A stretch of DNA of 64,000 nt from Balanoglossus misakiensis (Eukaryota > Animalia > Hemichordata): positions 3,276,783 through 3,340,782 of the forward strand of contig CM082580.2 of the NCBI GenBank assembly GCA_040954595.2. Direction: 5' to 3'. The number at the start of each line of letters is the position of its first letter. The first letter of the stretch is position 1. Positions 17,474 through 54,953 of this stretch are shown in pieces. Position numbers and translations under genes: made by a program. A model generated the notes under the pieces. It had not been told where the DNA came from and searched no databases. It saw only the letters and a list, made by a program, of their open reading frames with translations.

Positions 17474-17823
17474 ATGTCAATAAAGTTATACACATTGACC
17501 TAATGAATGATTGGTTGTCCTACATAATTTTTCCTCTTATTGTATTGCTGTCCAAAATGCTATTTTGCATTTTCAGACGAATTAGTTTACCATTTCCAAA
17601 CAAGAGTTCTGAGGCACTACCATTTAGTTGTCTGCACTATCAGAAAACTGGTCTGAACGGTCGCATAGGGGTGCATGGCTATAATATTTCCATATCAGAT
17701 TCATGTTTCAGTTACCTCTGACATTTCTATAGCCATTGAACGCACATGGTTTTAGTTTACTGGGTGGGATTTGAAGCAATCAAATTCTGGTTTTCACAAT
17801 TTATCTGCTCATCTTTTGACAGT

Positions 17824-24900: not shown

Positions 24901-27900
24901 TCTTCTCACTATCAATCAATTTGTCAACAGTTGAACAACACATGTTACATAAATATGATATTATGAGTATCAGTTTGACATTGTACAATATGTGATTGAG
25001 CTGACAACACCCACTTAGAGCCATATCAACTCTCTTCAACTTATCAGCTCGACATAAAGGCATAAAGTTCAGCTGTGAATCTTTTTCTTAATGACAGCTA
25101 GCTAGTGCTTAAAATGGACATTATATAATAGCTGTTTTTTTTAACTTTGACATTTCCAACAACTATACATGTTCTTCTCACTATCGATCAATTTATCAAC
25201 AGTTGAACAACACATGTTACAATGAGCTTGACATTGTACGGTATGTGAATGAACTGACAACACCAACCTAGAGCCATATCGATTCTCTTCAACTGATCAG
25301 CTCGACTTGCAACCAATATCACCACTGGTTTCTTGTATCTTTCACCGGGCTGATCAAATGAATACTTGTCCATTTGGGTTGTTCCTTTCAGAAACCGCAA
25401 CCAAAACAAAATCTATAAATGAGAATATTTGTATAATGAAATGTTAAATTATTTTTGAGGCAAAGTTAAAGGGATCATGAATGTGAGATTATAGTTCAAG
25501 AATTGATATTTTGGGAATTGTCAGTTTCTTCTGTCTTGGGGTATGGAAAATGATAAATGATGCAATACATATGGACTTCCAGTCTCATGCATGTTTAGTA
25601 AATTTTTAGTGAAGATTCTTACCCGTGGGAACACACCTTCAAAGGTGTTGAGTTGACCATTCTTGTCTGTAGCTTTGAACACCAATATGGAGACAGCATT
25701 GGGTGCTCCCAGAAACATGTTATGAGTGACGTAATACTCAGCCTGGCCAGCAAAATCCCAAACACTGGCATTTCCTACATCAGGAATATGAACACTTTGG
25801 ACATCAATACCGGGTGTGGGAATATGTTCACTTTCCTCCCATACCAGTGTTGTTTCTCCAGTCTTTGATATAGGGAGAGTGAAAGAAGAAAAATTGTAGT
25901 TATTTTAAAAGTTTCCCATTTTATGTGTGACCATACTTGTGAATTATAAAATTGTACAAAACTTCTAAATGGAAAGTGCACAATATGCTTGCAAAGTGGT
26001 TGCAATATCACTGTTCAATAGTATAAAAGCAATATACAAAAGCATAGCTGCAGGCACTGTGTGACTGTGGAAAAATGAAAAAGCAATGACGTGTTTATCC
26101 TGTGAACTTCCATAATGCCAGCACTACAATAACTTCACAAAACAATGAAATTTCATCAACCATACGTAGATTTAACTTTCCATCATTCACCTGTTCTACA
26201 GCAGTTTCCTAATATGCAATTATACAATTAATAAATATCAACATACCCTCTGAAGTGACTTCAACAGTGTAGTCTTACCAACTCCACCATCTCCAGCCAA
26301 GAACAACTTAAAAGTGTCACATTCCATACCTGATTCCTTCATCAGGTCAATGAACTCATCTCGTTTCTTGTTAAATAAAGAAATCAGAAAATACATGTAA
26401 CAAATTATCACATTGATATTTAATTATGGACACTCTTAATGCAGGGTACATAAGAATTTGCAGATTTCAGGTTATAAATTATTCAAATTCAAAAATTACA
26501 CTCACCCTAATGTAATCCAATAGCACATCCTTAACATAGCTCCTTACAGCAACATCAAGTGGTGTCTGTCCAGTCTAAGTTATATTGGAATAAAAGAAGT
26601 AACTATCAAATATGATGTCGATATTGATAAAATAATACTTTTATTAATATACTGTAACAACAGGTAACCAAATTTCAATTTCCCCCAAAATTTAACTCAA
26701 TTTTAATTTCAACTTTTTCATACAGAGAATGACCATATTCAATAGTAAACAAAACTTTCACCCAATTAATTTGATTAGCCGATAGCTTCTGTGACATTGA
26801 AACTTTTACAAATGCCAAATAATTTTGAATGATACCATCATATTTCTAGTATGTAGCCAAAACCAAAGAAATGAACAAATGCAGTGAGAGATCAAAAGGA
26901 AAATAAAGGGTATCATCATAATTTATCAAAAATAAATACTGGTTTCCTGTCTCAATAACATTTCAGAGCGCCGATCAAAACTATAAGAAAGTCTTAGGAT
27001 TGGCATCAACATGTCGAGTCTAAGGAACATGCATTACATCTTTCCAAACGCCATGGCTGAGGATATTCGTATATGCCCTACTCCAATTTATCAAAACTAC
27101 AATGGATTGGGAACGTACGTACTATATGCTGAATATATTGCAATTTGCATCAACTTCATATTGCATTATGAGTGTTTTGTTGAAACATTTGGATAAAATT
27201 GTACAGTCGTACAAACTGAATTTCAAATTCAATGCTTGTGAAGATTTAACTTTAAAATGGGAGTTAAACAGAACGCATGATGTCAGTTTTAATGGAATAA
27301 AAAATTGCAATAAGCAATAGAAGATTGTACCTTATTTTTGCAGTCAATATCAGCTCCATATTGCAGCAACAGTTTCACAATTTTTCCATAATCCAGCCTC
27401 CAAGTGCTTGTACCCATTGCTGCCATGTGGAGTGCTGTGTTGCCATCCTTTGCAAGAAACAAAAGTAAGTACTTCATGTAAGAGATACAGCAAGATAGGG
27501 ACTGGGTGCCGCAAAACATACCTGTACTACCAACTTATATATTGCCTGATGAGGAAACCATAGTTGTTAGTGGTTGGTATCTCCTCTAAATACATGTCGG
27601 CTGTAAAAGATGAACTGAAAGAGTAACATAAAACTGTCACCATATCTTCTTTACAATAATGATCCCCACTCAAATGTCTTCTAAACAAACTTGATATGTT
27701 GAATGAAAATGACTATGAATACATCAACAGTTTGATTTGAGTTTCAATAACAATCAGACACGGTATTCATTGCTGCATATTGTAAAGGTGTCCATACTTT
27801 CAGTAATGAAAGATTTCTACAGTATATAAGCGTCAATTTCATGAAGGGTTTCCCTATATCAAAAAAATAAATAAACATAAAAATAAACAAACAAACAGTC

Positions 27901-30900
27901 ATGTATTTATATCTGCATTGGTATTTACCTTGTTTTGTATGTTAGCATCAGCTTTGTGTTCCAATAACAATCTGACACGGCCTTCATCACCATTCCTTGC
28001 TGCAAAGTGTAAAGGGGTGTCTCCATCCTGTAAGTAATAAAGGAGGAGAATGAGAATAATGTCACAAAAATTAAAATGTTCTGTGAGGTCTCCGTAAATA
28101 AACAAAACAAAAAAACAAACACACAAAGTAATGTTTGTATGTTGATTAGAATTAACCTGTAGAAGTGAGGTTGGTATTTACCTTATTTTGTATGGTTACA
28201 TCAGCTTTGTGTTCCAATAACAATCTGACACACCCTTCATCATTGGACCTTGCTGCTGCAAAGTGCAAAGGTGTTTCTCCATCCTGTAAGTAATGAAGGA
28301 GGAGCATGAGAACAATGTCACAAAAATTAATTAAAATGTTCTGTGAGGTCTCCGTAAATAAACAAAACAAAAAAACAAACACACAAAGTAATGTTTGTTT
28401 GTTGATTAGAATTAACCTGTAGAAGTGAGGTTGGTATTTACCTTATTTTGTATGGTTACATCAGCTTTGTGTTCCAATAACAATCTGACACACCCTTCAT
28501 CATTGGACCTTGCTGCTGCAAAGTGCAAAGGTGTTTCTCCATCCTGTAAGTAATGAAGGAGGAGCATGAGAACAATGTCACAAAAATTAAAATGTTCTGT
28601 GATGTCTCCGTAAATAAACAAAACAAAAAAACAAACACACAAAGTAATGTTTGTATGTTGATTAGAATTAACCTGTAGAAGTGAGGTTGGTATTTACCTT
28701 GTTTTGTATGGTTACATCAGCTTTGTGTTCCAATAACAATCTGACACGGCCTTCATCACCATCCCTTGCTGCTGCAAAGTGCAAAGGTGTTTCTCCATCC
28801 TGTAAGTAATGAAGGAGGAGCATGAGAACAATGTCACAAAATTCAAATGTAATGTGAGGTCACCTTAAATAAACAAAACAAACACACATACAAATTTTTG
28901 TATGTTGCTTAGAATTAACCTGTAGAAGTCAGGTTGGTATTTACATGTACCTTGTTTTGTATGTTAACATCAGCTTTGTGTTCCAATAACAATTTTACAT
29001 GGCCTTCCTCACTAGATATTGCAGCTGCAATGTGCAAAGGTGTGATTCCATCCTGTAAGTAATGAAGGAGGAGCATGAGAACAATGTCACAAAATTCAAA
29101 TGTAATGAGAGTTCTCCTTAAATAAACAAAACAAACACACAAACAAATATTTGTATGTTAGTGAGGTTGGTATTTACCTTCTTTTGTATGTTAACATCAG
29201 CTTTGTGTTCCAATAACAATTTCACATGGCCTACATCACTAGATATTGCAGCTGCAATGTGCAAAGGTGTGATTCCATCCTGTAAGTAATGAAGGAGGAG
29301 AATGAGAACAATGTCACAAAAATCGAAATGTAATGTGAGGTCACCATAAATAAACATAACAAACACACATACTAATATTTGTATGTTGATTAGAATTAAC
29401 CTGTAGAAGTCAGGTTGGTATTTACCTTGTTTTTTATGTTAGCATCAGCTTTGTGTTCCAATAATAATCTGACACGGCCTTCATCACTATCCCTTGCTGC
29501 AATGTGCAAAGGTGTGTCTCCATCCTGTAAGTAATGAAGGAGGAGCATGAGAACAATGTCACAAAATTCAAATGTAATGAGAGGTCTCCTTAAATAAACA
29601 AAACAAACACACAAACAAATATTTGTATGTTAGTGAGGTTGGTATTTACCTTCTTTTGTATGTTAACATCAGCTTTGTGTTCCAATAACAATTTCACATG
29701 GCCTACATCACTAGATATTGCAGCTGCAATGTGCAAAGGTGTGATTCCATCCTGTAAGTAATGAAGGAGGAGCATGAGAACAATGTCACAAAAATCGAAA
29801 TGTAATGTGAGGTCACCATAAATAAACATAACAAACACACATACTAATATTTGTATGTTGATTAGAATTAACCTGTAGAAGTCAGGTTGGTATTTACCTT
29901 GTTTTTTATGTTAGCATCAGCTTTGTGTTCCAATAACAATCTGACACAGCCTTCATCATCAGACCTTGCTGCTGCAAAGTGCAAAGGTGTTTCTCCATCC
30001 TGTAAGTAATGAAGGAGGAGCATGAGAACAATGTCACAAAAAATGAAATGTAATGTGAGGTGTCCTTAAATAAACAAAACAAACACACAAACAAATGTTT
30101 GTATGTTGATTAGAATTAACCTGTAGAAGTCAGGTTGGTATTTACCTTGTTTTTTATGTTAGCATCAGCTTTGTGTTCCAATAATAATCTGACACGGCCT
30201 TCATCACTATCCCTTGCTGCAATGTGCAAAGGTGTGTCTCCATCCTGTAAGTAATGAAGGAGGAGCATGAGAACAATGTCACAAAATTCAAATGTAATGA
30301 GAGGTCTCCTTAAATAAACAAAACAAACACACAAACAAATATTTGTATGTTAGTGAGGTTGGTATTTACCTTCTTTTGTATGTTAACATCAGCTTTGTGT
30401 TCCAATAACAATTTCACATGGCCTACATCACTAGATATTGCAGCTGCAATGTGCAAAGGTGTGATTCCATCCTGTAAGTAATGAAGGAGGAGCATGAGAA
30501 CAATGTCACAAAAATCGAAATGTAATGTGAGGTCACCATAAATAAACATAACAAACACACATACTAATATTTGTATGTTGATTAGAATTAACCTGTAGAA
30601 GTCAGGTTGGTATTTACCTTGTTTTTTCTGTTAGCATCAGCTTTGTGTTCCAATAACAATCTGACACAGCCTTCATCATCAGACCTTGCTGCTGCAAAGT
30701 GCAAAGGTGTTTTTCCATCCTGTAAGTAATGAAGGAGGAGCATGAGAACAATGTCACAAAAAATGAAATGTAATGTGAGGTGTCCTTAAATAAACAAAAC
30801 AAACACACAAACAAATGTTTGTATGTTGATTAGAATTAACCTGTAGAAGTCAGGTTGGTATTTACCTCATTTTGTATGTTAGCATCAGCTTTGTGTTCCA

Positions 30901-33900
30901 ATAACAATCTGACACGGCCTTCATCACCATCCCCTGCTGCAAAGTGCAAAGGTGTTTCTCCATCCTGTAAGTAATGAAGGAGGAGCATGAGAACAATGTC
31001 ACAAAAATCGAAATGTAATGTGAGGTCACCATAAATAAACATAACAAACACACATACTAATATTTGTATGTTGATTAGAATTAACCTGTAGAAGTCAGGT
31101 TGGTATTTACCTTGTTTTGTATGTTAGCATCAGCTTTGTGTTCCAATAACAATCTGACACGGCCTTCATCACCATACATTCCTGCTGCAAAGTGCAAAGG
31201 TGTTTCTCCATCCTGTAAGTAATGAAGGAGGAGCATGAGAACAATGTCACAAAAAATGAAATGTAATGTGAGGTGTCCTTAAATAAACAAAACAAACACA
31301 CAAACAAATGTTTGTATGTTGATTAGAATTAACCTGTAGAAGTCAGGTTGGTATTTACCTCATTTTGTATGTTAGCATCAGCTTTGTGTTCCAATAACAA
31401 TCTGACACGGCCTTCATCACCATCCCCTGCTGCAAAGTGCAAAGGTGTTTCTCCATCCTGTAAGTAATGAAGAAGGAGCATGAGAACAATGTCACAAAAT
31501 TCAAATGTAATGTGAGGTCACCATAAATAAACATAACAAACACACATACAAATTTTTGTATGTTGATTAGAATTAACCTGTAGAAGTCAGGTTGGAATTT
31601 ACCTGAATGTTTTGTATGTTAGCATCAGCTTTGTGTTCCAATAACAATCTGACACGGCCTTCATCACCATACATTCCTGCTGCAAAGTGCAAAGGTGTGA
31701 GTCCATCCTGTAAGTAATGAAGGAGGAGCATGAGAACAATGTCACAAAAATTGAAATGTAATGTGAGGTGTCCTTAAATAAACAAAACAAACACACAAAC
31801 AAATGTTTGTATGTTGATTAGAATTAACCTGTAGAAGTCAGGTTGGTATTTACCTCATTTTGTATGTTAGCATCAGCTTTGTGTTCCAATAACAATCTGA
31901 CACGGCCTTCATCACCCTCCCCTGCTGCAAAGTGCAAAGGTGTTTCTCCATCCTGTAAGTAATGAAGGAGGAGCATGAGAACAATGTCACAAAAATTGAA
32001 ATGTAATGTGAGGTCACCATAAATAAACATAACAAACACACATACAAATTTTTGTATGTTGATTAGAATTAACCTGTAGAAGTCATGTTGGTATTTACCT
32101 GAATGCTTTGTATGTTAGCATCAGCTTTGTGTTCCAATAACAATCTGACACGGCCTTCATCACCATACATTCCTGCTGCAAAGTGCAAAGGTGTGAGTCC
32201 ATACTATAAGTAATAAAGGAGAAGCATGAGAACAATGTCACAAAAATTAAAATCAGGGCTTGCGCGCGTTTGATATTTAATTTTTTACATGCAGTGCACG
32301 CAAATAGCCAAAAGAATTGCGTGAAATTGTATTTGAATTATGTGCAACAAAATAGCGATAGACAAGCAGGCTTTCAGATAAGCAACGACTTGAAAGAGTT
32401 CTCGCTTCCTGTCTATGATCACATTCTTTTCAAAAACGGGGTTTTTCGAGCCTTTACTGTCGACAAGACGCGCATATGAGTGAGCCAGAATGCTGCACTC
32501 TGATTGGTCAATTTAGTAGCCACTAGAGGGCAGCGCTCATGAGTCCCCCCCCCCCCCCCCCCCCCCCCCGATGTGCATGCTAACATATGAAAAGCAGGTC
32601 AATGGACACCTGAGGTCACCCAAAAATTTGACAAAAAATTTTCATTCATGTTTATGTCATGTGCAACAAATCCTACATTTGCAGCCCTTTCACTTTGCCT
32701 ACCATTAGGTATGCACGTAATTCTTTACTATCAATCACGTGATCTGGCCATGTGACCAACGGCGTTGTCATTTTCAGATGACGGGCAAGCAATATTTCGG
32801 CATCTAGTAAAAGTTTTTTTCCGAGTATGTTTTTATTTTAGAACCGCCAAACACATAACATGTATCAGGTATGGTGCCTCATCAGCCTCATTGCATTTCG
32901 TCTGCACAGTCTTTGTCTGCACCACGTAAGTCCACGTTGCTGAATTTGCCCGTCATCTAGAAATTTGAATGCGCACGTAACTGCCGTCTGAGCGCGTCTG
33001 ACGTCATTTGATATCGAAGAATACATGAATCAAACAGGTGTCACAGGTATCCCCCTGTATTTGGCATTTCATGATAGTTTCATCCCTCCAAATACCAAAG
33101 CTGCACCTGTACAACGTGCTGAGATATGGCACTGTACGACAGAGGTCATCCAAATCACCTTATACATTTGGGCAAAAACCAACTGACACTTACATTCGTC
33201 CCTGTGGAACAAAAACCACACATATCGCCCTGTTGGTTAGTGTCCAATTAAATGTACAAAATCAATGATTTAGGCAGGTGCAACAGGTGACCCCGCCTTT
33301 GGTATATCATTATGGTCCCATCCGTATATCCCCCCCCCACCCCACGCCATAGCTGCATGCATCTGCTGTTATTCACTAAGCAAAAGTAGGTGAAATGTCA
33401 CATAAAGTCGCCCACAACTTGACAGGAAAATCGGACTTCATATTGATCCATGTGCAACAAATACCACGCTAGCATCCCTTTCATTGACCCCACAATTACG
33501 CATGCACATAATTGAGTTACGCAGGTGTCACAGGTGACCCCCGAATCGGGCGTATTATTTTGGTCCCATACAGCTGCATGAAGCTACGTGCCATTACGGG
33601 CGACCTGATAACCCCCACGGCCACCTGCGGGCCAACCCCCATACTGAACGTCCAGTTGCAACGTCACGACTGAAGTAGGAACTTTTGAACGGCAACGAAG
33701 CCTGATCTCTGATTATTGCTGGTACCATACTCCCTTCGTGCAAGAAAATCACTCGTCTGCTTACGTATTTCGGCCAATTTCCCGAACTACTAACCACTAC
33801 ATGTGACTGCCATGCTAATGAAACCTCCCACAACATTAGCGACTGAGGGTCAAAGTCCGCTGCCGCATTACATTGAATGTTAACCCGTGTAGCCGGGTCT

Positions 33901-36900
33901 GCGTAGACACATTTGAACGGCAACAGCTAACAAACTCAGCGTTATTCAATAAAACGCCCTAACACAGCCTGAACTCTGATAATGTGTTGTCCCAAAATTC
34001 ATTCCGTGGAAAATAATCACTGGTCTGTTTACGTATTTCAGCCGATTTTCCAAGGACTACTGCAACCCGCCAGAAGTGAGTACCCTGCTAATGAGATCTC
34101 CACAACATTACGTAATGACGGTCAAAGTCCGATGCCCCAGTGTTCGTCCTCAGCCCACCAAAAAATGCGAAAAATATTACAAAAATCTTCTTCTCAAAAT
34201 GGACGTGGCCTAGGACCTTGAAATTTGGCACAGGGGATTTTGGCCACATGGTCTACAAAAATCGCGAAAAGAATGTACATGCCCCCATTAACGTGCAAAT
34301 TAGGTCAATTTGAAAATTTCGCTCGATTATAGCCACCAAGTCACGTGACTAATTACAAATTCAAAGGGCAGGTGCACCAGTACTCATGGGCCCCAACCAC
34401 CGTGCCAAGTTTAATAGGCGTCGGTCCAGGGATTTTTGAGAAAAATGGGAGCAAAAAAACGACTCAAGAAGAAAGAAGAAATATAGCTGCAAGCAGCGAT
34501 GACGGGCACAAGCTTAAGCCGAAGGTCAAAGGTCATATGTGGTCACCCAAAATTTGGGCAAAAAGTTCGATCCACCCAAACACAAATGGTGTACCTGTTC
34601 TGGATGCTGAGATATTGGAAAGTAGGTCAAAGGTCACCTGAGGCCACCCGAAAGTTGGGCAAAAAATTTTGACCCCATACTAGTACAGGTGTAAGAAAAA
34701 CCAGACCTCTAGCCCTATTGGTTCGCCTAGAATTAGATATGCACATAATTAATGAGGTTAAGTATAAGGCTCCATTAGGAGTTCCATGCCTCCAAATGCC
34801 AAGGCTGTATCTGCGCTGGTTGCCGAGATATGATAAAGTAGGTCAAAGGTCACCTGAGGTCACGCAAAATCGGGCAAGACATTTTAACCCTATACTGGTC
34901 CATGTTCAACATAAATCAAACCTCTAGCCCTATTGGCTACCCTCGAATTAGGTATGCACATAATTAATGAGGTAAAGTATAAGGCTCCATTAGGAGTTCC
35001 ATGCCTCCAAATGCCAAGGCTGTATCTGCATGGGTTGCCGAGATACGGTAAAGTAGGTCAAAGGTCACCTGAGGTCACCCTAAATTGGGCAAGAAATTTT
35101 AACCCCATACTGGTCCATGTCCCACAAGAACAAAACCTCTAGCCCTAATAGTTAGCCCGGAATTAGGTATGCACATAATTAATGAGTTAAGCAGGTGTTA
35201 CAGGTGAGCCCAAAATGTTGTCTTTTATTTTGGTCCCATTCAGCTCACGGGCCACTAGAATGTCACTGTACAGGACAATTGCACAGACGTGGCCATAGCG
35301 TCATAGCTTAACTATAGAAAGTATAGGCCTATGGCTGGGTCCACAAATATGACAAATAATATTTAATAATCTTCTTCTCACAATAGACTTGGCCCACGGC
35401 CTTGACACTTGACATGTAGGACACTGACCACATGTTCCGCAAAAATTGCTAAAAGAATTTTGATATCTCCATTCATATGCAAATTAGGCCCATTTGAAAA
35501 CTTTGCCCATATATGGTCATCAGGTCACATGACTTATTAAACATTCACGAGGGTACTGCACCAGCTCTCATAGGCCTGCATCACTGTGCCAAGTTTGAGA
35601 TTTGTAGGTTCAGCCGTTTTCAAGATCCTATTGGGCAAAAAAACTACACAAGAAAAAGAAGAGGAATATAGCTGCAAGCAGCGATGACGGGCACAAGCTT
35701 AAGCCGAAGGTCAAAGGTCATATGTGGTCACCCAAAATTTGGGCAAAAAGTTTTGACCCCCATACTAGTCCAGGTCCAACAGAAACCAGACCTCTAGCCC
35801 TATTGGTTTGTCTGAAATTAGATATGCACATAATTAATGATGTAAAGTGTAAGACTCTATCAATAGTTCGATCCCTCCAAACACAAATGCTGTACCTGTT
35901 CTGGATGCCGAGATATAGGAAAGTAGGTCAAAGGTCACCTGAGGCCACCCGAAAGTTGGGCTAAAAATTTTGACCCAATACTAGTCCAGGTCCAACAAAA
36001 ATCAGACCTCTAACCCTATTGGTTCGCCTAGAATTAGATATGCACATAATTAATGAGGTAAAGTATAAGGCTTCATTAGGAGTTCCATGCCTCCAAACGC
36101 CAAGGCTGTATCTGCGCTGGTTGCCGAGATATGGTGAAGTAGGTCAAAGGTCACCTGAGGTCACCCAAAATTGGGCAAGAAATTTTAACCCAATACTGGT
36201 CCATGTTGAACAAAAATCAAACCTGTAGCCCTATTGGCTAGCCTGGAATTAGGTATGCACATAATTAATGAGATCAGCAGGTGTCACAGGTGACCCCCAA
36301 TTTTGTCTTTTCAATTTTAGTCACAACCCTCCAAACGCCAAGTCTGTACCTGCTGTGGATGCCGAGATATAGGAAAGTAGGTCAAAGGTCACCTGAGGTC
36401 ACCCAAAATTTGGGCAACATTTTTTGATCCCATACTGGTCCATGTCCCACAAGAACAAAACCTCTAGCCGTATTAGTTAGCATGGAATTAGGTATGCACA
36501 TAATTAATGAGTTAAGCAGGTGTTACAGGTGAGCCCGAAATTTTGCCTTTTAATGTGGTCCCATTCTGCTCACTGGCCAGTAGACAGTCACTGTACAGGA
36601 CCATTGCACAGACGTGTACATGGCGTCATAGCTTAACTATAGAAAGTATAGGCCCATGGCTGTGTCCAAAAATATGAAAACTACTAATATTTACAAGTCT
36701 TCTTCTCAAAATAGACTTGGCCCACGGCCTTGATATTTGGCATGTAGGACACTGATCACATGGTCCACAAAAGTTGCTAAAAGAATTTCGATATCTCCAT
36801 TCATATGCAAATTAGGCCCATTTGAAAACTTTGCCCATATATGGTCATCAGGTCATGTGACTAATTAAACATTCACGAGGGTACTGCACGAGCTCTCATA

Positions 36901-39900
36901 GACCTGCACCCTTGTGCCAAGTTTGAGATTCGTAGGTTCAGCCGTTTCCAAGATCCTAGTTGGCGAAAAAACTGCACAAGAAAAAGAAGTAGAAGAAATA
37001 TAGCTGCAAGCAGCGATGACGGGCACAAGCTTAAGCCAAAGGTCAAAGGTCATATGTGGTCACCCAAAATTTGGGCAAAAAGTTTTGACCCCCATACTAG
37101 TCCAGGTCCAACAGAAACCTGACCTCTAGCCCTATTGGTTTGTCTGACATTAGATATGCACATAATTAATGATGTAAGCAGGTGTCACAGGTGACCCCCA
37201 ATTTTGTCTTTTCAATTTTAGTCACAACCCTCCAAACGCCAAGTCTGTAACTGCTCTGGATGCCGAGATATAGGAAAGTAGGTCAAAGGTCACCTGAGGT
37301 CACCCAGAATTTGGGCAACATTTTTTGATCCCATACTGGTCCATGTCCCACAAGAACGAAACCTCTAGCCGTATTAGTTAGCATGGAATTAGGTATGCAC
37401 ATAATTAATGAGTTAAGCAGGTGTTACAGGTGAGCCCGAAATTTTGCCTTTTAATGTGGTCCCATTCTGCTCACTGGCCAGTAGACAGTCACTGTACAGG
37501 ACCATTGCACAGACGTATACATGGCGTCATAGCTTAACTATAGAAAGTATAGGCCCATGGCTGGGTCCAAAAATATGAAAAACTACTAATATTTACAAGT
37601 CTTCTTCTCAAAATAGACTTGGCCCACGGCCTTGATATTTGGCATGTAGGACACTGATCACATGGTCCACAAAAGTTGCTAAAAGAATTTCGATATCTCC
37701 ATTCATATGCAAATTAGGCCCATTTGAAAACATTGCCCATATATGGTCATCAGGCCACATGACTAATTAAACATTCACGGGGATACTGCACCAGCTCTCA
37801 TAGGCCTGCACCATTGTGCCAAGTTTGAGATTTGTAGGTTCAGCCGTTTTCGAGATCTACCTGAGCAATAAAACTACACAAGAAAAAAAAAAAAATATAG
37901 CTGCAAGCAGCGATGACGGGCACAAGCTTAAGCCGAAGGTAAAAGGTCATATGTGGTCACCCAAAATTTGGGCAAAAAGTTTTGACCCCATACTAGTCCA
38001 GGTCCAACAGAAACCAGACCTCTTGCCCTATTGGTTTGTCTGAAATTAGATATGCGCATAATGAATGATGTAAAGTGTTTGACTCAATTAATAGTTCGAT
38101 CCATCCAAACACAAATGCTGTACCTGTTCTGGATGCCGAGATATAGGAAAGTAGGTCAAAGGTCACCTGAGGCCACCCGAAAGTTAGGCAAAAAAATTTG
38201 ACCCCATACTAGTCCTGGTCCAACAAAAACCAGACCTCTAGCCCTATTGGTTCGCCTAGAATTAGATATGCACATAATTAATGAGGTAAAGTATAAGGCT
38301 CCATTAGGAGTTCCATGCCTCCAAATGCCAAGGCTGTATCTGCGTGGGTTGCCGAGATATGATAAAGTAGGTCAAAGGTCACCTGAGGTCACCCAAAATT
38401 GGGCAAGAAATTTATCCCCATACTGGTCCATGTTCAACAAAAATCAAACCTCTAGCCCTATTGGCTAGCCTGGAATTAGGTATGCACATAATTAATGAGA
38501 TAAGCAGGTGTCACAGGTGACCCCCAATTTTGTCTTTTCAATTTTAGTCACAACCCTCCAAACGCCAAGTCTGTACCTGCTGTGGATGCCGAGATATAGG
38601 AGAGTAGGTCAAAGGTCACCTGAGGTCACCCAAAATTTGGGCAAAAAATTTTGATCCCATACTGGTCCATGTCCCACAAGAACAAAACCTCTAGCCGTAT
38701 TAGTTAGCCTGGAATTAGGTATGCACATAATTAATGAGTTAAGCAGGTGTTACAGGTGACCCCAATATTTTGCCTTTTATCGTGGTCCCGTTCTGCTCAC
38801 GGGCCAATAGAGAGTCACTGAACAGGACCATTGCACAGACGTGGACATAGCGTCATAGCTTAACTATAGAAAGTATAGGCCCATGGCTGGGTCCAAAAAT
38901 ATGAAAAATAAAAACGTCTTCTTCTCAAAATAGACTTGGCCCACGGCCTTGATATTTGGCATGTAGGACACTGATCACATGGTCCACAAAAGTTGCTGAA
39001 AGAATTTTGATATCTCTATTCATATGCAAATTAGGCCCATTTGAAAACTTTGCCCATATATGGTCATCAGGTCACATGACTATATAAACATTCACAGGGG
39101 TACTGCACCAGCTCTCATAGGCCTGCACCATTGTGCCAAGTTTGAGATATGTAGGTTCAGCCATTTTCAAGATCCTGTTGGGCAAAAAAACTACACAAGA
39201 AAAAAAAAAAGATGAAAAACCCCAGTAATACCAATAGGGCACAAGCCAGCTTGGCTTGTGCCCTAAAAAAGATGAAAAACCCCAGTAATACCAATAGGGC
39301 ACAAGCCTGCTTAGCTTGTGCCCTAAATATAGCTGCAAGCAGCGATGACGGGCACAAGCTTAAGCCGAAGGTCAAAGGTCATATGTGGTCACCCAAAATT
39401 TGGGCAAAAAGTTTTGACCCCCATACTAGTCCAGGTCCAACAGAAACCTGACCTCTAGCCCTATTGGTTTGTCTGAAATTAGATATGCACATAATTAATG
39501 ATGTAAAGTGTAAGACTCCATTAATAGTTCGATCCATCCAAACACAAATGCTGTACCTGTTCTGGATGCCAAGATAGCAAAGTAGGTCAAAGGTCACCTG
39601 AGGTCACCCAAAATTTGGGCAAAATTTTTGACCCCATACTGATCCATGTACTACAAGAACAAAACCTCTAGCCCTATTGGTTAGCCTGGAATTAGGTATG
39701 CACATAATTAATGAGATAAGCAGGTGTCACTGGTGACCCCAAATTTTGGCTTTTCAATTTTAGTCCTAACCCTCCAAACGCCAAGTCTTTGCCTGCTCTG
39801 GTTGCCAAGATATGGTAAATTAGGTCAAAGGTCACCTGAGGTCATGCAAAATTTTGGCAAGAAATTTTGAGCCTATACTGGTCCATGTTCAACAAAAATC

Positions 39901-42900
39901 AAACCTCTAACCCTATTGGTTAGCCTGGAATTAGGTATGCACATAATTAATGAGATAAGCAGGTGTCACAGGTGACCCCCAATTTTGGCTTTTCAATTAT
40001 AGTCCCAACCCTCCAAACGCCAAGTCTGTACCTGCTATTGATGCGGAGATATAGGACAGTAGGTCAAAGGTCACCTGACGTCACCCAAAATTTGGGCAAA
40101 TTTTTTTAACCTCATACTGGTCCATGTCCCACAAGAACAAAACCTCTAGCCCTATTGGTTAGCCTGGAATTAGGTATGCACATAATTAATGAGATAAGCA
40201 GGTGCCTATTGGTTTTACTGTGTTTTTTAGGGCCCAAGCGCCTGAGGGCGCTTGGGCCCCTAATGAGAGGTCTCCTTAAATAAACAAAACAAACACACAA
40301 ACAAATGATTGTATGTTGATTAGAATTAACCTGTAGAAGTCAGGTTGGTATTTACCTCATTTTGTATGTTAGCATCAGCTTTGTGTTCCAATAACAATCT
40401 GACACGGCCTTCATCACTATCCCTTGCTGCAAAGTGCAAAGGTGTGTTCCCATCCTGTAATGAATGAAGGAGGAGCATGAGAACAATGTCACAAAATTCA
40501 AATGTAATGATGTGATGATTGTGACAAGATAAGCTAATCTTTAGTCCCTGTTCACATTGTGATTTGCACAGTCCTGGACAACGTCGTCTCGCCAACCTTT
40601 GACCTTATAAAGCAGAACCAAGTTGGTCCTCTTCTGGTTGTTTTGTCAAATGATAGACTACACTGTTTATGTCAATTGTAAAAGGTATCAACTAGGACCA
40701 GAGTCGGACAAAATGTGTCCACACACACCATGCTGGGACCAGAGTTGGACCAGAGTCGACCACAAACCACCCCATTCAACTGGGACCAAAATTGTCTGGA
40801 CAAGGGTCGGCCAGACCCGTTCACACCTTTTTTTTTGCTGGGCCATGTACCTTGCTAGGACAAGGGCTTAGCCTTTTTTTGAGTAATGTGAACGGCCTAT
40901 ATGTATAGGCGCTGAGGATCAGTCCCATAGACAATGGGTTGTGGAGAGGTGTTAATCCTTACACCGACTCAGGTCTGGCCGGCAAAGCCATATCAAATCT
41001 GAGACGTTTCAGAACCACTTACACCGTCCACACGTGTTTTTTTAAGACTGTATCTGATCTGAGACGCTTCAGAACCATCTGAATGGTGTGTGTGTGACCC
41101 CAATAAAAAATTTAAACGTAATGTGAGGTCTCCTTAAATAAAAAAAAACCACACAAATAAATGTTTGTATGTTGATTAGAATTAACCTGTAGAAGTCAGG
41201 TTGGTATTTACCTTGTTTTGTATGTTAGCATCAGCTTTGTGTTCCAATAACAATCTGAAACGGCCATAATTGCATGACCTTATTGCTGCAACGTGCAAAG
41301 GTGTGTCTCCATTCTGTAAGTAATGAAGGAGGAGCATGAGAACAATGTCACAAAAATTAAAATGTATTGTGAGGTCTCCATAAATAAACAAAACAAACAA
41401 ACACACATACAAATATTTGTATGTTGATTAGAATTAACCTGTAGAAGTCAGGTTGGTATTTACCTTGTTTTGTATGTTAGCATCAGCTTTATGTTCCAAT
41501 AACAATTTGACACGGCCTTCACCATACTTTCCTGCTGCAATGTGCAAAGGTGTTTCTCCATCCTGTAAGTAATGAAGGAGGAACATGAGAACAATGTCAC
41601 AAAAATTAAAATGTACTGTGAGGTCTCCGTAAATAAACAAAACAAACAAACACACATACAAATGTTTGTATGTTGATTAGAATTAACCTGTAGAAATCAG
41701 GTTGGTATTTACCTTGTTTTGTATGTTAGCATCAGCTTTATGTTCCAATAACAATTTGACACGGCCTTCACCATACTTTCCTGCTGCAATGTGCAAAGGT
41801 GTTTCTCCATCCTGTAAGTAATGAAGGAGGAACATGAGAACAATGTCACAAAAATTAAAATGTACTGTGAGGTCTCCGTAAATAAACAAAACAAACAAAC
41901 ACACATACAAATGTTTGTATGTTGATTAGAATTAACCTGTAGAAATCAGGTTGGTATTTACCTTGTTTTGTATGTTAGCATCAGCTTTGTGTTCCAATAA
42001 CAATCTGAAACGGCCATAATTGCATGATCTTATTGCTGCAACGTGCAAAGGTGTGTCTCCATTCTGTAAGTAATGAAGGAGGAGCATGAGAACAATGTCA
42101 CAAAAATTAAAATGTACTGTGAGGTCTCCGTAAATAAACAAAACAAACAAACACACATACAAATGTTTGTATGTTGATTAGAATTAACCTGTAGAAATCA
42201 GGTTGGTATTTACCTTGTTTTGTATGTTAGCATCAGCTTTATGTTCCAATAACAATTTGACACAGCCTTCACCATACTTTCCTGCTGCAATGTGCAAAGG
42301 TGTGTCTCCATTCTGTAAGTAATGAAGGAGGAGCATGAGAACAATGTCACAAAAATTAAAATGTACTGTGAGGTCTCCGTAAATAAACAAAACAAACAAA
42401 CACACATACAAATGTTTGTATGTTGATTAGAATTAACCTGTAGAAATCAGGTTGGTATTTACCTTGTTTTGTATGTTAGCATCAGCTTTATGTTCCAATA
42501 ACAATTTGACACAGCCTTCACCATACTTTCCTGCTGCAATGTGCAAAGGTGTGTCTCCATTCTGTAAGTAATGAAGGAGGAGCATGAGAACAATGTCACA
42601 AAAATTAAAATGTACTGTGAGGTCTCCGTAAATAAACAAAACAAACAAACACACATACAAATGTTTGTATGTTGATTAGAATTAACCTGTAGAAGTCAGG
42701 TTGGTATTTACCTCATTTTGTATGTTAGCATCAGCTTTGTGTTCCAATAATAATCTGACACACCCTTCATCACTATCCCTTGCTGCAAAGTGCAAAGGTG
42801 TTTCTCCATCCTGTAAGTAATGAAGGAGGAGCATGAGAACAATGTCACAAAAATCGAAATGTAATGTGAGGTCACCATAAATAAACATAACAAACACACA

Positions 42901-45900
42901 TACAAATATTTGTATGTTGATTAGAATTAACCTGTAGAAGTCAGGTTGGTATTTACCTTGTTTTTTATGTTAGCATCAGCTTTGTGTTCCAATAACAAAG
43001 GAGCATGAGAACAATGTCACAGAAATTAAAAAGTAATGTGAGGTTTCATTTAACAAACAAACAAACAAACAAACAAACAAATGTTTGGATGCATGTGTGT
43101 ATTTGGCTGTAATGTATGTTAGAAACTTGGATTATTGTTTGTGTAGCATTTATGCGCACAACATAACAAAGTGCTAGTGCTACATTGTTTTCATATTTGA
43201 AGTTCACCAAAAAGGAATGAATAACTCGCACACTCCCCATAGCAAGAGAAAAAAATTGACAAATCACACAAGGTTTTAATTGAAGACTAAAAACAAATGT
43301 TTTGTTATCTCATGATTGTCAATAAAAAGAATTCCAGAGATCATTAAGACATAAATACATAATGAACTTGTTAGTTCATGTACCTTAGTATTAGCATTGA
43401 CATCTGAACCAATGATAATCAACTCACTCATAGTATCAAGTTCACCTTTCCAGGATGCTGCATGCAATGCTGTTAAATCCTGGAATGAAGAATAAAAATG
43501 ACATCACAAATCTGATACTTTTCATATGTGTGTGTCAAACACTTGACACACACACATAAGCTGCAGTCATGGATATGCAGTTAAAATAAATAACACTTTC
43601 AACATTCCTTAACCCCCCCTCCCCCTTAGACTTTTTAACAGTCTTTGATTGAAGACGGGGAGTACAATAATGGATCGAATATGATGCAGAGATAGTCTTG
43701 AAAATTTTGCTCTTAGAATTCAAATTCTTTGCTGTTTCATATGTGTTGTTATCCTCGTGTGTTATTGTTATTTTACAAAAGGCCAATATAAACACTCACC
43801 AGGATCAGGTGATTGTCCACGTATAATTCACCCCTTGCATTGACATCATATCCATCAGCTATCAGCGACTGGATCTTTGCAATGTCACCATGCTTTGCGG
43901 CATTGATGAGAACCTGTAACAATCAACAGGCAACACTTGTTTTATCAAAATATTCTCAATATGAAATCATAAACAGGAAAACATTGAAATCTTCGTTGAT
44001 GAAGAATTGTGAAAACAATTAAGGAATATCACGCCTCGATCATTTTACTTTAGTTGTTTGCGCAGGTTTCTGCACAGAGTGTAAAAAGTTTAATTTTATT
44101 TCCAGTGTTTTTCAAACAAAGTTGTAGTGTAGTGCTGTGAGGTTATGTTAGTAGATACGATGTATTTATTAAATTTGGGACTGAACTTTTCATGCGTTTG
44201 CAATACTGATGGTTGCTATAGCAACCAAACCCTTTGGCAGCCTATCCCGGGCTATTGAAAATGCCCGAAAGCCATGTTTAACTGCCTGTGTCTCAAAAAA
44301 TTGCATGGTGACCCCCTATTTTTTTGCCTTAAATTGATTTGATATATTTCATACAAGGTATCTACCAAGTCTTAAAAAAAGTTTACTTCTAGAAGTGGTA
44401 AAAAACTTATAAAAAGTAGATTTTTAGGCAATTCTGTCTTTAAGGTGGCATTGCATGAAACCGTCGAGACTTTTTCAGAGGCATATTTCTCATCAAAGAC
44501 AACGTTAAAACCCCCATAAACCATATATATTCTGGAAGCTGAGTTTTTGAACTTTTGTTTGAGTTGCAAATATTATTGATCCCCGGAAATGGTGGCGATT
44601 TTTGATATTATGTCATTAAATTTAAATTAGGTAAAAAAGTTGACCATGCATCATGCATCTTAATATGTCATTCGAAACTAGAGTACACGTGCAAAAAAAC
44701 GGTAATTTTGTTTTGTGTTATCTGCTTCCATTGAGGAGTAACAGCGTTTGAAAGTTAGATTTTTAGTAAAATTTCATCAAATTCACGGTGAGTTGTATTG
44801 AATCAGAGTTTATTCCCGCCAGGGACACTTTATCGACTAACAAAAATAACGTTTTATTGGATGGGTCATACACAATCCCCTGTTAAAATTTGAGCAAATT
44901 CGGCCAACGCAGAGCGAAGCTATGTTCGTCAGAAGTTGTCAAGAGCAGCGAAAATGCAAACTGAGAAAAACGGCCATTTGCATTATTGACACCTATTTGT
45001 TAAGCTGTGAACTCATTCAGAAAAGTGCTATTTTGGGGTGATTATGCACCATTTCCGCCAAGACGTATTAGTCAGGATGTGGGTCAGTATTAGGCCTACC
45101 GATTTATGTAAAAAAGTAAAATTTGGCAAAAATCACAACTTTTCATGCAATGCAGGCTTAATTTAACAGTTGTATTGATATGCGATTATCATACTGAACA
45201 AGATAAAATCTCAAAATTGCGAAAAAAAATATTCAGGTTAACATTCTATAATGGTGAGAAAAAAAATATGACGACCCTCCCAAAATACTTATTTATGGAG
45301 CCGTTTTACAAAGATCTACGAACACTGGCAAAAGCTATAGAGGGCGCTTTCCCCCAAAATCTAGCTGGTTGACCCCCATTTTTATACCATAGATTAAATG
45401 TTTAGAAGTCATAGTATCTTCAGTATTAAATTAAATTTCAACATGATCAGATGACCTTTTATTTCAAGGTGCGTAACACCTTAAACTGTGATGTCACCAT
45501 GGATAAAAAAAAAGATAAGGGAGCATTCGTTTTTTACAGGGAGGGGGGGGCCGGTGGAATTTGAGTCGCCGACTAAATGTAAAAGGCAACCCCCCCTGGA
45601 AATTACTTTTCTAAAATGTGACCCCCCCCCCCCCAAAAAAAAAAAGTTTATCCACCGGATTAAACTTATCATGGACACAGCGCTCCCATGAAAAGAATTT
45701 GAAACCGATATTTCCCCTCATCAGTGGGTATTAAAACTGAACATTGTTTTTATTTTTTAAGTATTTGTATTCTGTGTTGGGAGACATTGTAAACCGAGAA
45801 TTGAAAGGGGGGGTTTGGGAGGGGGTGTCCCCCTCCCACGTAAGAAAATTTTATAAAATACAGAGCTCAAAGCTGCATTTTAATAAACCCAGCAAAAGCA

Positions 45901-47190
45901 AATTAACGTCGCCGCTCAAAGTTATCATGGGGTGGGGGCAAGTCCCCTGACCTGGGACACTAGATAAACCAGTCAATGATTGAAAGGTGTTGATGAATGG
46001 AGGGGGTGGGTGTGAAAATTTTGTAAAATAAAGGACGCGAAACTGCATTTTTGTGGACTCAAAATAAATATTTAGCCGTCAAAGTTTTGAAGTCCCCCCC
46101 CTTTCAGTCCCTATATAATAATCCCTTGATTATAAAATTTGTCCCCCCCTAAAAACTGCTTTGTAAAAGTAAACCCCCCCCTGATTTCCACCGGCCCCCC
46201 CCCCCCCTCCCTGTAAAAAACGAATGCTCCCTAACATCATACAATGGGTAAACATAAGTTCATGATTATTCTTCACAAACAGAATGCAAAGGATAGATGA
46301 ATAATCTCAGCATACTGAAAGACATTATTCTGAAAAAAGTACTGTGTGTTACAATTTAAAGTTTTCCTCTCAATCAGACAGATAATATTTCCTGTAGCGT
46401 ATCTGCCCATAACTTCAGTTCAAAAGTCACTTACCTGTGGGTCTTTATATTCCTCCGAAGCCGTTGTTCCCTCATCAGATTCACTGTCTGTTGGGTGTAC
46501 CTGAAATATCCCAAAACACACCCTGGTAACCACTTAAATGCCATTAGAACAACAACATTCCACAAAGGTTTGGGTTTTGTGAAGTGTGTGAAGTGTCCAG
46601 CACACAGTCAATAAAATCACGGTCATGTTGAATAATTACTGTGATGTACGGTACTACGTTTCTCAATCTGATGAAGTGCATTTGTTTCCACACATTACCG
46701 TTTGCATTACATTTTCAGTGATCAACTCGACAACTGACTCCATCACCCTCTAACACTCTCACTCACTCACTCACTCACAGATGTCAAAACAGTTTAGTTA
46801 ATAGTAACACAAACATTTTGCCATATAAATGGCAAGTTTTGCGACTGTTGGATTTATAAAACCGCACTTCACTGCATTTAAAGTGTTGTAGTGCATCGAC
46901 AATTTGTCAATTAGCTTTCACAATCACAATTTAGCTGTGTTGATATGACATACATTGTACATGTACTTTACGGCATTTTGTCCATCAAATGCTTCAATGC
47001 AATGGAATCATGCATAATTTCAGTATACTGACAATCTTGTTAGTGCTCTTTACAATTTTCCTCTTGCAGACAGACTATTTCAGCAGCAAGGCATATGCCC
47101 TTAACTTCAGTTCAACTGGTCACTAGCACTTACCTGTGGCTCATCATATTTCCAGGAAACCCTGGTTTTCTTATGCCAAATATTGCCCAT
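17824..47190 (-). CDS. Roco gene copy 1: ankyrin array - ROC GTPase - COR - death domain (DAPK-like, no kinase seen)
   Basis: Spliced model in continuous frame: 47190-47134, 46500-46435, 43913-43800, 43479-43384, 26 cassette ANK exons, 27447-27331, 26574-26506, 26366-26247, 25862-25623, 25412-25268, 24721-24573, 22336-22157, 21957-17824. Motifs GDGGVGKT, WDFAGQ, VILVASRAD, COR-like VVLDPNWLC, DAPK-type death-domain ends. Confidence 0.9.
18026..20860 (-). repeat. Coding minisatellite, 126 bp / 42 aa unit, 13 type-A then 10 type-B units
   Basis: A = AEFPATSHDTHDVDSGFATM-SPSSQQPDSSVQFRRGQDTTTA, B = AGARAISPDIETSEGRSAKM-SPSSEQPDSSVQFRRGQDTTTA, exact 126 bp spacing. Confidence 0.97.
22157..22336 (-). 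CDS. Roco copy 1 exon, start of COR
   Basis: 180 bp, AG/GT bounded, AVKTLPNLCAKI...FLRKATNYLHDIGE. Confidence 0.88.
22882..23310. mobile_element. TTAA-flanked MITE (Kolobok-like)
   Basis: TTAA on both sides, GGATGTAC...GTACATCC termini, internal inverted repeat. Near-identical copy at 63187-63597. Confidence 0.85.
23332..24556. mobile_element. 1.2 kb insertion without TSD containing palindromes
   Basis: Absent from the paralogous intron (gagtac|agcagaat near 57713). Contains a 20-bp-arm palindrome at 24455-24495 and a hairpin near 23350-23380. Confidence 0.65.
24573..24721 (-). CDS. Roco copy 1 exon, ROC C-terminal part
   Basis: 149 bp, phase 1 to 0, RHMLDEVLTEAQKMFQDYLDIVNAIFLVNCRDSTDKEMKQVRACLHEKK. 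Confidence 0.85.
24780..25305. repeat. ~275 bp diverged local tandem duplication of intron plus exon 3' end
   Basis: ggcataaagttca...tagagccatatc...tcagctcgac occurs twice; only once in copy 2. Confidence 0.75.
25268..25412 (-). CDS. Roco copy 1 exon with G4-like motif
   Basis: 145 bp, ILFWLRFLK...PVVILVASRAD. Confidence 0.87.
25623..25862 (-). CDS. Roco copy 1 exon with G2/G3 motifs
   Basis: 240 bp, PTPGID...VWDFAGQAEYYVTHNMFL. Confidence 0.93.
26247..26366 (-). CDS. Roco copy 1 exon with P-loop
   Basis: 120 bp, FKLFLAGDGGVGKTTLLKSLQR. Confidence 0.93.
26506..26574 (-). CDS. C-capping ankyrin half-repeat exon
   Basis: 69 bp, TGQTPLDVAVRSYVKDVLLDYIR, phase 0. Confidence 0.85.
27331..27447 (-). 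CDS. Unique last full ankyrin exon
   Basis: 117 bp, DGNTALHMAAMGTSTWRLDYGKIVKLLLQYGADIDCKNK. Confidence 0.9.
27929..32203 (-). CDS. Ankyrin exon-cassette array, lower block: 18 single-repeat phase-0 exons
   Basis: Exons 27929-28027, 28182-28283, 28442-28543, 28698-28799, 28951-29052, 29178-29279, 29426-29524, 29650-29751, 29898-29999, 30146-30244, 30370-30471, 30618-30719, 30866-30964, 31111-31212, 31359-31457, 31603-31707, 31854-31952, 32099-32203. Consensus DGxTPLHxAAxxxxEGxVxLLLEHKADxNIxNx; all AG/GT bounded. Confidence 0.93.
32254..40260. mobile_element. 8 kb intronic composite of head-to-tail Helentron/DINE-1-like non-autonomous elements with ~215 bp internal subrepeats
   Basis: Terminal motif agctgcaagcagcgatgacgggcacaagc at 34485, 35670, 37002, 37899 and 39331; hairpins gggcacaagc..gcttgtgccc (~39237, ~39297) and gggcccaagcg..cgcttgggccc (~40230-40259); many ggtcaaaggtcacctgaggtcac units. 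Family assignment is inference. Confidence 0.7.
40356..42810 (-). CDS. Ankyrin exon-cassette array, upper block: 8 single-repeat phase-0 exons
   Basis: Exons 40356-40454, 41212-41313, 41464-41562, 41713-41811, 41962-42063, 42214-42312, 42463-42561, 42712-42810. Confidence 0.93.
40544..40897. mobile_element. Possible degenerate Harbinger-type MITE inside a ~600 bp intron insertion
   Basis: gtccctgttcacatt ... aatgtgaacggcc imperfect TIRs. Confidence 0.35.
42957..42998 (-). pseudogene. Truncated ankyrin cassette (acceptor and 5' part deleted)
   Basis: Only LLLEHKADANIKNK plus the donor remain, joined directly to intron sequence. Confidence 0.85.
43384..43479 (-). CDS. Unique N-terminal ankyrin exon
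   Basis: 96 bp, DLTALHAASWKGELDTMSELIIIGSDVNANTK. Confidence 0.88.
43800..43913 (-). CDS. N-capping ankyrin exon
   Basis: 114 bp, VLINAAKHGDIAKIQSLIADGYDVNARGELYVDNHLIL, acceptor ttacag and donor gtgagt. Confidence 0.88.
44023..45480. mobile_element. Old TTAA-flanked element with a nested TTAA-flanked element at 44444-45157
   Basis: The inner element has GCATTGCATGAAA inverted repeats with TTAA flanks. Outer ends are TTAA-GG...CC-TTAA with weak TIR similarity and a ggtgaccccctatttt motif shared with the 22882 MITE. Confidence 0.5.
45519..46231. mobile_element. PIF/Harbinger-type MITE
   Basis: GGGAGCATTCGTTTTTTACAGGGAGGG TIRs, TAA on both flanks. Confidence 0.88.
46435..46500 (-). CDS. Roco copy 1 acidic N-terminal exon
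   Basis: 66 bp, VHPTDSESDEGTTASEEYKDPQ, acceptor tttcag and donor gtaagt, phase 0. Confidence 0.75.
47134..47190 (-). CDS. Putative first coding exon of Roco copy 1
   Basis: (M)MGNIWHKKTRVSWKYDEPQ followed by GTAAGT, phase 0. A tttcag acceptor just upstream means an earlier exon is possible. Confidence 0.65.
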
Positions 47191-47565
47191 CATGCAGCTG
47201 AAACTCACCAAAAGAAAACCCACCAACTTTTGCACTGGTCTCGTGCCCAACAACTTTTACTTCGTTCTAAGATGGCGTCTTCTGGTCAGAATCATGTGAT
47301 CTTGAAGACTGGAGGGGGTGTAAAAAGTAACTATAAGTAAATACACCCCCCTATACACTACAAAAGAAGTCAGAATATAAAACATGATGAGACATATGTC
47401 AAAGCCTGAGGAATTTTTTGCACACAGCCCTGCCTGAGGAATTTTTTGCACACAGCCCTGCCTGAGGAATTTTTTGCACACAGCCCTAAATATTTTCACA
47501 ATACACTCAACAAATTTACCGCATGCAGCACAAAATAAAATATTGAACACCCAGATTTCTTAATT

Positions 47566-54219: not shown

Positions 54220-54953
54220 AAGTAGCTAGCCATCTATAGCTTTACTCAAATCCAAAGCTGTTAACCCTTTGGATGCCATATTTTGTTGTCAAAATGTGGT
54301 GCAACATTTTCATCATTTTCCGTTATTTTTTCCTTTAATTCTAGACCAAGAGGACACAATTTTCCATTATCTTAAGATCTTGGTCAAAATTTTAGGAGAA
54401 AAATATGACATTTGTGAAAAATGACAAGTTGACTTGAGCGTATATTGAAAAGGTAATGTGTAAATACTGCCACAACACATTTACCAGAAATAGAGACACA
54501 TTTGCAATATTTACTTGTACATTACACTGACCTTAGCAGAATAGATAACTCCAAGATTTCCATTCACCCTGAGAGCATCAAGTATACATTTTGATCTCTT
54601 CAGACTTGTTTGACAAGGTATTGATGTCAATAAAGTTATACACATTGACCTAATGAATGATTGGTTGTCCTACATATTTTTTCCTCTTATTGTACCGCTG
54701 TCCAAAATGCTATTTTGCATTTTTAGTCAAATTAGTTTACCATTTCCAACCATTTAGGTGTCTGCACTATCAGAAAACTGGTCTGAACGGTCGCATAGGG
54801 GTGCATGGCTATAATATTTCCAAATCAGATTTATGTTTCAGTTACCCCTGACATTTCTATAGCCATTGAAAACACATGGTTTTAGTTTACTGGGTGGGAT
54901 TTGAAGCAATCAAATTCTGGTTTTCACAATTTATCTGCTCGTCTTTTGACAGT

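Follow-up and report, generated by a model that had tools for sequence, protein, structure and literature searches.

The cassette array and its gene

We analysed a 64,000-nucleotide window of the hemichordate Balanoglossus misakiensis (contig CM082580.2, positions 3,276,783 to 3,340,782), which holds a minus-strand ankyrin gene of the ROCO family and a tandem paralog of it. From 42810 to 27929 lie 26 intact exons, here called cassettes, each encoding one ankyrin repeat, all of phase 0-0 and each bounded by AG and GT. They measure 99 bp (n = 12), 102 bp (n = 12) or 105 bp (n = 2), contain no stop codon or frameshift, and comprise 19 distinct DNA sequences and 18 distinct protein sequences; all three cassette exons scanned matched Pfam Ank (expectation value, E, 1.5e-10 to 3e-8). 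The blocks TPLH, AA, G and LLLEHKAD are unchanged in 26 of 26 cassettes, the residue before TPLH is D, E, I, K, L or N, the residue after it F, I or V, and the loop occurs in 12 types. A first-pass annotation, made from the letters alone, had described these exons, their invariant framework and the variable residues and loops, all of which were recovered. It had also called the introns uniform in length and near-identical. Length holds for 23 of the 25 inter-cassette introns (125-158 bp), but insertions have enlarged the other two to 757 and 8,152 bp, dividing the array into three blocks; near-identity does not hold, since the introns share about 94% of their letters (p = 0.058) and resemble one another no more closely than do three unique introns compared between the tandem paralogs (92.5-93.8%). 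The array comprises, in order of transcription:

42957-42998, minus strand: truncated 27th cassette; exon 3' half and donor kept, acceptor and 5' half deleted, no in-frame acceptor
41212-42810, minus strand: cassettes 1-7, each exon with a single ankyrin repeat, introns of 150 bp; exact copies of 403 bp and 292 bp, both at lag 249
40505-41118, no strand: insertion, roughly 0.6 kb long and with approximate limits, in the intron that follows cassette 7; the 757-bp intron has normal ends
40356-40454, minus strand: cassette 8, between the two insertions
32254-40260, no strand: insertion of about 8 kb, largely tandem units of 215-239 bp, in the intron position where the 0.6-kb insertion also sits
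27929-32203, minus strand: cassettes 9-26, introns 125-158 bp; exact copies of 530 bp (lag 720) and 266 bp (lag 493)
27735-27798, minus strand: decayed ankyrin exon with a TPLQ motif and a stop but lacking a proper acceptor; the paralog has it too, near 63,096

The 0.6-kb and 8-kb insertions are unrelated to each other, yet occupy the same spot in the cassette intron. No terminal inverted repeat of the 8-kb insertion was found among the 25 longest of 40 pairs, and its tandem repeat family occurs again at about 48.6-49.0 kb. CpG is strongly depleted across the array (observed/expected 0.16 for exons and 0.15 for introns, against 0.54 for the COR exon), which suggests germline methylation.

Placing exons at AG/GT boundaries yielded a gene model of 38 exons, 8,112 nucleotides and 2,703 amino acids with a terminal stop only, encoding in order two unique ankyrins, the 26 cassettes, two further unique ankyrins, Roc, COR and a predicted death domain. 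This open model supports the module of ankyrins, GTPase and death domain that had been proposed. Its remaining parts, and the paralog, are as follows:

47134-47193, minus strand: putative first coding exon, 60 bp, phase 0, placed by eye (ATG, GT donor, frame stays open)
46435-46500, minus strand: putative second exon, acidic linker, 66 bp, placed by eye (AG/GT, in frame)
43800-43913, minus strand: N-terminal capping-type ankyrin exon, 114 bp (AG/GT, phase 0), by eye like the N-terminus of Ptychodera P0129
43384-43479, minus strand: unique ankyrin exon, 96 bp (Pfam Ank E 3.8e-4; AG/GT)
26506-27447, minus strand: two unique C-terminal ankyrin exons (27447-27331 and 26574-26506), the first with Pfam Ank E 4.7e-9
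24573-26366, minus strand: Roc exons (26366-26247, 25862-25623, 25412-25268 and 24721-24573), Pfam Roc E 6e-6 on one exon
17824-22336, minus strand: COR exon (22336-22157) and last exon (21957-17824), Pfam COR-B E 1.2e-7
18084-20859, minus strand: 22 copies of a 126-bp (42-amino-acid) unit inside the last exon, within the death domain
54954-64000, minus strand: tandem paralog extending beyond the window, with two cassettes (one whole, one cut), the C-terminal ankyrins, Roc, COR and a predicted death domain

The Roc P-loop and DxxG motifs are intact, Roc is followed by COR as in ROCO proteins, and the last exon encodes COR-B, the N-terminal half of the death domain, the repeat insert, the C-terminal half and the stop. 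A structural model of the homolog P0126 (mean predicted local distance difference test score 83.8) matched a bacterial COR at Z 17.0. No kinase domain is present in the 2,703-amino-acid model, and the only frame of at least 130 amino acids between the gene start and the next gene had no Pfam match, though small upstream exons may have escaped notice there. The gene is a ROCO member and not a DAPK1 ortholog.

Among 15 of 104 contig joints (4 runs; Roc-COR region and last cassette), none corresponds to a modelled intron, and the contigs cover introns. Contig depth summed over two runs, which is not a copy number, stands at about 1e5 for the cassette, at 1-8e3 for the COR exon and near 1e2 in some introns, an unevenness that hints at a multi-copy family. 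A 420-bp high-copy element lies both in a COR intron of the gene (22892-23314) and in the paralog intron after the last cassette (63191-63601).

The predicted death domain has its fold shown on a homolog: the P0126 model superposes on the MyD88 death domain with Z 12.4 and a root-mean-square deviation of 2.3 over 97 residues, and HHalign profile comparison gave 96.6% for the subfamily death fold. The window gene itself fits the earlier claim of a death domain less neatly, its copy being split into halves 982 amino acids apart, both of which align to the subfamily death domain (C half E 0.0013, N half E 1.6). The insert occupies the loop where relatives carry short variable inserts and consists mostly of 42-amino-acid units of two types, with 59% S, T, P, D, E or Q; the paralog carries about three copies of the 126-bp unit (55214-55594).

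The post-array part of the paralog is open, and a ratio of nonsynonymous to synonymous differences per site (pN/pS) of 0.41 against the first gene over about 700 codons shows that Roc-COR is under purifying selection. Its cassette intron is 90-97% identical to the cassette introns of the first gene, a likeness compatible with exchange between paralogs, though no proof of it. Differences between the two genes are patchy (20866-21957 compared with 55602-56693), with long identical COR stretches, and about 64 death-domain codons show no silent difference; this patchiness hints that gene conversion may have acted between them.

The paralogs belong to a tandem segmental duplication (14934-27871 and 52752-63178, about 37.8 kb apart) that includes a plus-strand C2H2 zinc-finger exon (15353-16294 and 53170-54219) lying tail to tail with the ROCO gene; the duplicates are 98% identical in the zinc-finger part and about 93% in the ROCO part. 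A Penelope-like element lies in a Roc intron of the paralog (58031-60141), with reverse transcriptase and GIY-YIG matches at 58411-59697 and a 417-bp inverted repeat.

Copying, variation and selection within the array

Cassettes have been copied in blocks of one, two and three and are recombining, also inside exons. Exact copies of 403, 292, 530 and 266 bp occur at lags of one, two and three cassettes, and the best-partner DNA identity of 23 exon-plus-intron units is 0.90-1.0. Across these 23 units site pairs fail the four-gamete test in 45 of 171 cases between exon sites and in 104 of 285 between an exon site and an intron site, and the compatibility of nearby sites exceeds that of permuted data, none of 2,000 permutations reaching it (P = 0.0005). 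Recurrent mutation could account for some of the conflicts between sites, but not for their dependence on distance. The minimal number of recombination intervals (Rm) is six, four of them within the exon, so that the crossover between conserved introns proposed earlier is borne out as copying and recombination but is not confined to introns. Each of four loop types is combined with two or more 5' ends, and the 25 hairpin junctions fall into 15 types. Because the intron splits the beta-hairpin between positions 2 and 3, reordering of cassettes creates new hairpin tips.

We next consider where the variation falls. DARPin libraries randomise positions 2, 3, 5, 13, 14 and 33 of the repeat (PMC8248824), and the first-pass annotation had equated the variable sites with these. 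Five of the six do change at least twice, but the F/I/V site, position 10, is a framework site in DARPins, where it can nevertheless contact the target (PMC8248824), and positions 15-17, 19, 21 and 30 vary outside the six. The hairpin sites at the exon end vary as described, though modestly, with one or two amino-acid changes each.

Changes were counted as distinct changes per codon column, for which a tree is not needed, and the six DARPin-randomised positions, position 10 and the inserted codon were taken together as eight binding-face columns. Amino-acid changes per site reach 1.15 in these columns and 0.30 elsewhere (Fisher p = 0.032), while silent changes are level (0.75 and 0.69). Between the concave and convex surfaces, at seven positions each, the count is 20 against 4 amino-acid changes (p = 0.0008), the convex set being one that we assumed. 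Position 5 carries five amino-acid changes and no silent one. Measured against the exon-wide silent rate, the six DARPin columns give a ratio of 1.6-2.3 (p 0.01-0.10). In codon models, M2a was preferred over M1a (twice the log-likelihood difference 12.1, with a class ratio of nonsynonymous to synonymous rates, dN/dS, of 3.75; 9.5 without the indel-rich loop), the top site being position 5. Simulations under neutral plus purifying evolution reached a value of at least 11 in 0 of 123 runs without recombination and in 2 of 123 with matched recombination. As evidence for diversifying selection on the concave face, the site test is positive and survives matched recombination, while the within-column counts are not significant.

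The comparison of dN/dS with intron divergence that had been suggested as a check was also run, and changes on the binding face exceed intron changes at p < 1e-4, but we rejected introns as a neutral baseline. Silent exon sites themselves exceed introns in the array (0.127 against 0.058), and they diverge about twofold faster than introns in Roc-COR between the paralogs as well (0.148 against about 0.07), which makes introns an unfair standard. Taken together, the ankyrin frame is clearly conserved, and positive selection on the predicted binding face is likely, at few sites. The concentration of variation on that face, as first described, stands in the counts, with moderate support for positive selection.

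Relatives, interpretation and rival explanations

A library search for relatives returned 227 proteins, of which the best 150 were listed and 42 were domain-scanned. The matches listed were headed by proteins named 'DAPK1-like' from Ptychodera, Glandiceps and Saccoglossus. A tree built from 31 rows of the COR region places both window genes as sister to Ptychodera flava P0125 and P0274 (100/99), within a clade of 19 rows (99/99) in which every named member comes from an acorn worm. The nearest five proteins from Ptychodera (P0125 and P0272-P0275) are fragments on short contigs of 0.4-2.9 Mb, as expected of a hard-to-assemble multi-copy family. Ankyrins were found in 31 of the 42 scanned relatives and Death or CARD in 21, some adding caspase or GT4, and one of the 42 has the N-terminal kinase of true DAPK. 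No cassette motif and no COR-region relative was found in metagenome scans.

Homogenised ankyrin arrays are not unique to this animal. Among the fetched proteins, 57 have at least eight in-register ankyrin units, and internal identity is at least 60% in seven (the Glandiceps and Amphiura ROCOs, two Montipora proteins, one each of Lingula and Haliotis, and one further). The window array is among the most homogeneous seen (mean pairwise identity 75%) and varies least of all on the convex face; in 7 of 7 homogenised arrays the concave face is the more variable, the window contrast being 1.42 against 0.25 bits. Coral, brachiopod and abalone proteins (P0005-P0015) join long ankyrin arrays, several of them homogenised, to other domains, which from their Pfam accessions we take to be GT4 (PF20706), TRADD-N-like, TIR or nSTAND3; their exon layouts may resemble that of the window array. 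Repeats of high internal conservation are reported for 0.8% of metazoan ANK, TPR and WD repeat proteins (PMC4986451), NLR-like cases have been noted in animals (PMC13449251), and a role as counter-invader systems has been proposed for bacterial LRR-Roc-COR proteins whose effectors vary (PMC8195603).

We consider it the best explanation, at a probability of roughly 0.6, that the gene encodes a kinase-less ankyrin-Roc-COR protein with a predicted death domain that acts as an inherited, fast-changing intracellular sensor, its exons copied in blocks and recombining while selection keeps the frame and likely favours change on the predicted binding face. Misaligned pairing of the 245-bp units in the germline would lead to unequal crossover and conversion, and these to altered repeat number and order. 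Sub-exon pieces would be swapped across the invariant TPLH and LLLEHKAD blocks, and, with the intron splitting the hairpin between positions 2 and 3, new tips would arise. By analogy, ligand binding on the concave face may switch Roc-COR, and the death fold may recruit cell-death or immune adaptors. We assume that the default transcript contains all or most cassettes.

Several observations weigh against this reading. The surfaces were assigned by canonical ankyrin numbering and not on a model of the window protein, and 41 of 43 old ankyrin arrays are likewise more variable on the concave than on the convex side, by small margins. Whole-exon pN/pS is 0.90; the six DARPin columns alone give a dN/dS of 1.0-1.6, which does not exceed 1 significantly (p = 0.13 by Fisher test against all others); and the simulated null reaches the test value in 12 of 123 runs when recombination is heavier. 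Flagged position 19 (CGT/TGT/CAT) resembles CpG decay, the loop columns align ambiguously, and the lack of stops is weak evidence (p = 0.065). At the other end of the protein, the N half of the death domain alone falls below scoring against the death profile (E 1.6), and the 982-amino-acid insert could have disabled the domain.

The same whole-exon ratio, the non-significant within-column tests and the inflation of the site test by recombination would fit a neutral runaway expansion, in which unequal crossover amplifies units, purifying selection guards the fold and binding-face sites merely drift, with no selection for diversity. The gene evidently tolerates expansion, since it carries the 22-copy 126-bp repeat and two intron insertions. 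Plain relaxation of the surface would not be expected to leave the convex positions nearly invariant (4 changes against 20). Position 5, with five amino-acid changes and no silent one, also speaks against drift alone, and in 121 of 123 null runs with matched recombination the site-test value stayed below the observed one. We regard neutral expansion as the strongest competitor, though an unlikely one.

Less probable still is combinatorial splicing or somatic rearrangement of cassettes, by which a multi-copy ROCO family with death-fold signalling would furnish many ankyrin receptors per cell or animal as a DARPin-like immune receptor. Whichever cassettes are joined, the frame is kept, and the splice signals differ little; one annotated isoform of an amphioxus relative lacks exactly 99 amino acids, or three ankyrin repeats (one of five pairs, all pipeline models); and brown-algal ROCOs are reported to have splice variants (PMC11378527). 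The germline gene is complete, however, unlike an unassembled receptor locus, and four of the five isoform pairs differ outside the ankyrins, including a Ptychodera paralog with a similar repeat frame. Many adjacent cassettes are identical and would add little splice diversity, and even in brown algae somatic recombinants have gone unreported, according to Teng 2024 (PMC11378527). Folding of the introns gave no convincing signal of covariation (one pair of 25; covariation term +0.28), and hairpins in five introns (z -0.7 to -3.1) had no covariation support either; intron RNA structure as a splice selector was rejected on this ground. A cryptic AG/GT 25 nt into most introns was likewise set aside, its putative branch point probably lying too close.

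That the array or its newest copies represent a decaying locus or an assembly artefact is very improbable: exact duplicates as long as 530 bp, the truncated and decayed cassettes and the lack of a spanning read would suit it, but the 19 distinct exons have mosaic structure and an open frame, the paralog has cassette variants of its own, and independent DNA contigs cover the gene and the last cassette.

Comparison with known repeat-based systems

The window gene belongs to the kinase-less ankyrin-Roc-COR proteins that carry the name 'DAPK1-like' in acorn worms, echinoderms, amphioxus and a sponge, among which Ptychodera P0129 has a similar repeat frame and Glandiceps P0002 and Amphiura P0165 have homogenised arrays. 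This large family, in acorn worms, echinoderms and amphioxus, becomes a set of candidate intracellular immune sensors. DAPK1 itself shares the order of ankyrins, Roc, COR and death domain, whereas our model lacks its kinase and calmodulin-binding region and has about 30 ankyrins and a split death domain. We found no description of an animal ankyrin-ROCO cassette array in the literature covered, which excludes most subscription journals and supplements. Vertebrate ankyrin genes often devote one exon to each repeat, a background point that this literature did not confirm.

A fixed frame with a variable surface is shared with lamprey VLR and arthropod Dscam (PMC3341825, PMC11378527), although the germline model here is complete and open, unlike the incomplete germline gene of the VLR type. 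DARPin libraries have the same design (PMC8248824): five of their six randomised positions carry at least two amino-acid changes in the array, which, unlike DARPins, also varies at positions 10, 15-17 and 19 and has loop indels.

Closer parallels come from brown-algal LRR-ROCOs (PMC3341825, PMC11378527), which have the same Roc-COR core, one repeat per symmetric exon, clustered paralogs and dead repeat exons in introns. In the algal genes selected sites lie on the concave face, where selection on the window array has moderate support. Here, too, the one-repeat exons are symmetric (26 of 26 in phase 0-0) and inactivated repeat exons are present, one truncated and one decayed; the repeats, however, are ankyrins on exons of 99-105 bp in phase 0, not leucine-rich repeats (LRR) of 72 bp in phase 2, and the predicted death fold is an addition of the animal gene. 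The compact locus is suited to separating germline shuffling, splicing and somatic change, as is also at issue in brown-algal ROCOs.

Fungal ankyrin NLRs of high internal conservation, such as Podospora Pa_3_8560, have the same homogenised array with a variable inner helix and hairpin, non-canonical unit lengths (33-36 amino acids) and a proposed origin by unequal crossover (PMC4986451, PMC13449251); in these two papers we saw no description of a one-repeat-per-exon layout. High internal conservation characterises the window array as well, judged by its mean identity of 75% and not by T-REKS Psim. The fungal proteins couple their repeats to a NACHT ATPase and an N-terminal effector, whereas the window gene has neither NACHT nor NB-ARC and couples them to a Roc-COR GTPase and a predicted C-terminal death fold; repeat-number polymorphism is shown in the fungal genes (PMC4986451, PMC13449251), while the window array is known from one sequence.

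The window gene thus works like the fungal ankyrin NLRs and the brown-algal ROCOs, lacking one defining feature of each. The principle of a shuffled repeat sensor is already published for both (PMC4986451, PMC11378527), and the locus would now place this fast-shuffling design of fungi and brown algae in a deuterostome animal, built on an ankyrin scaffold and a ROCO-death module.

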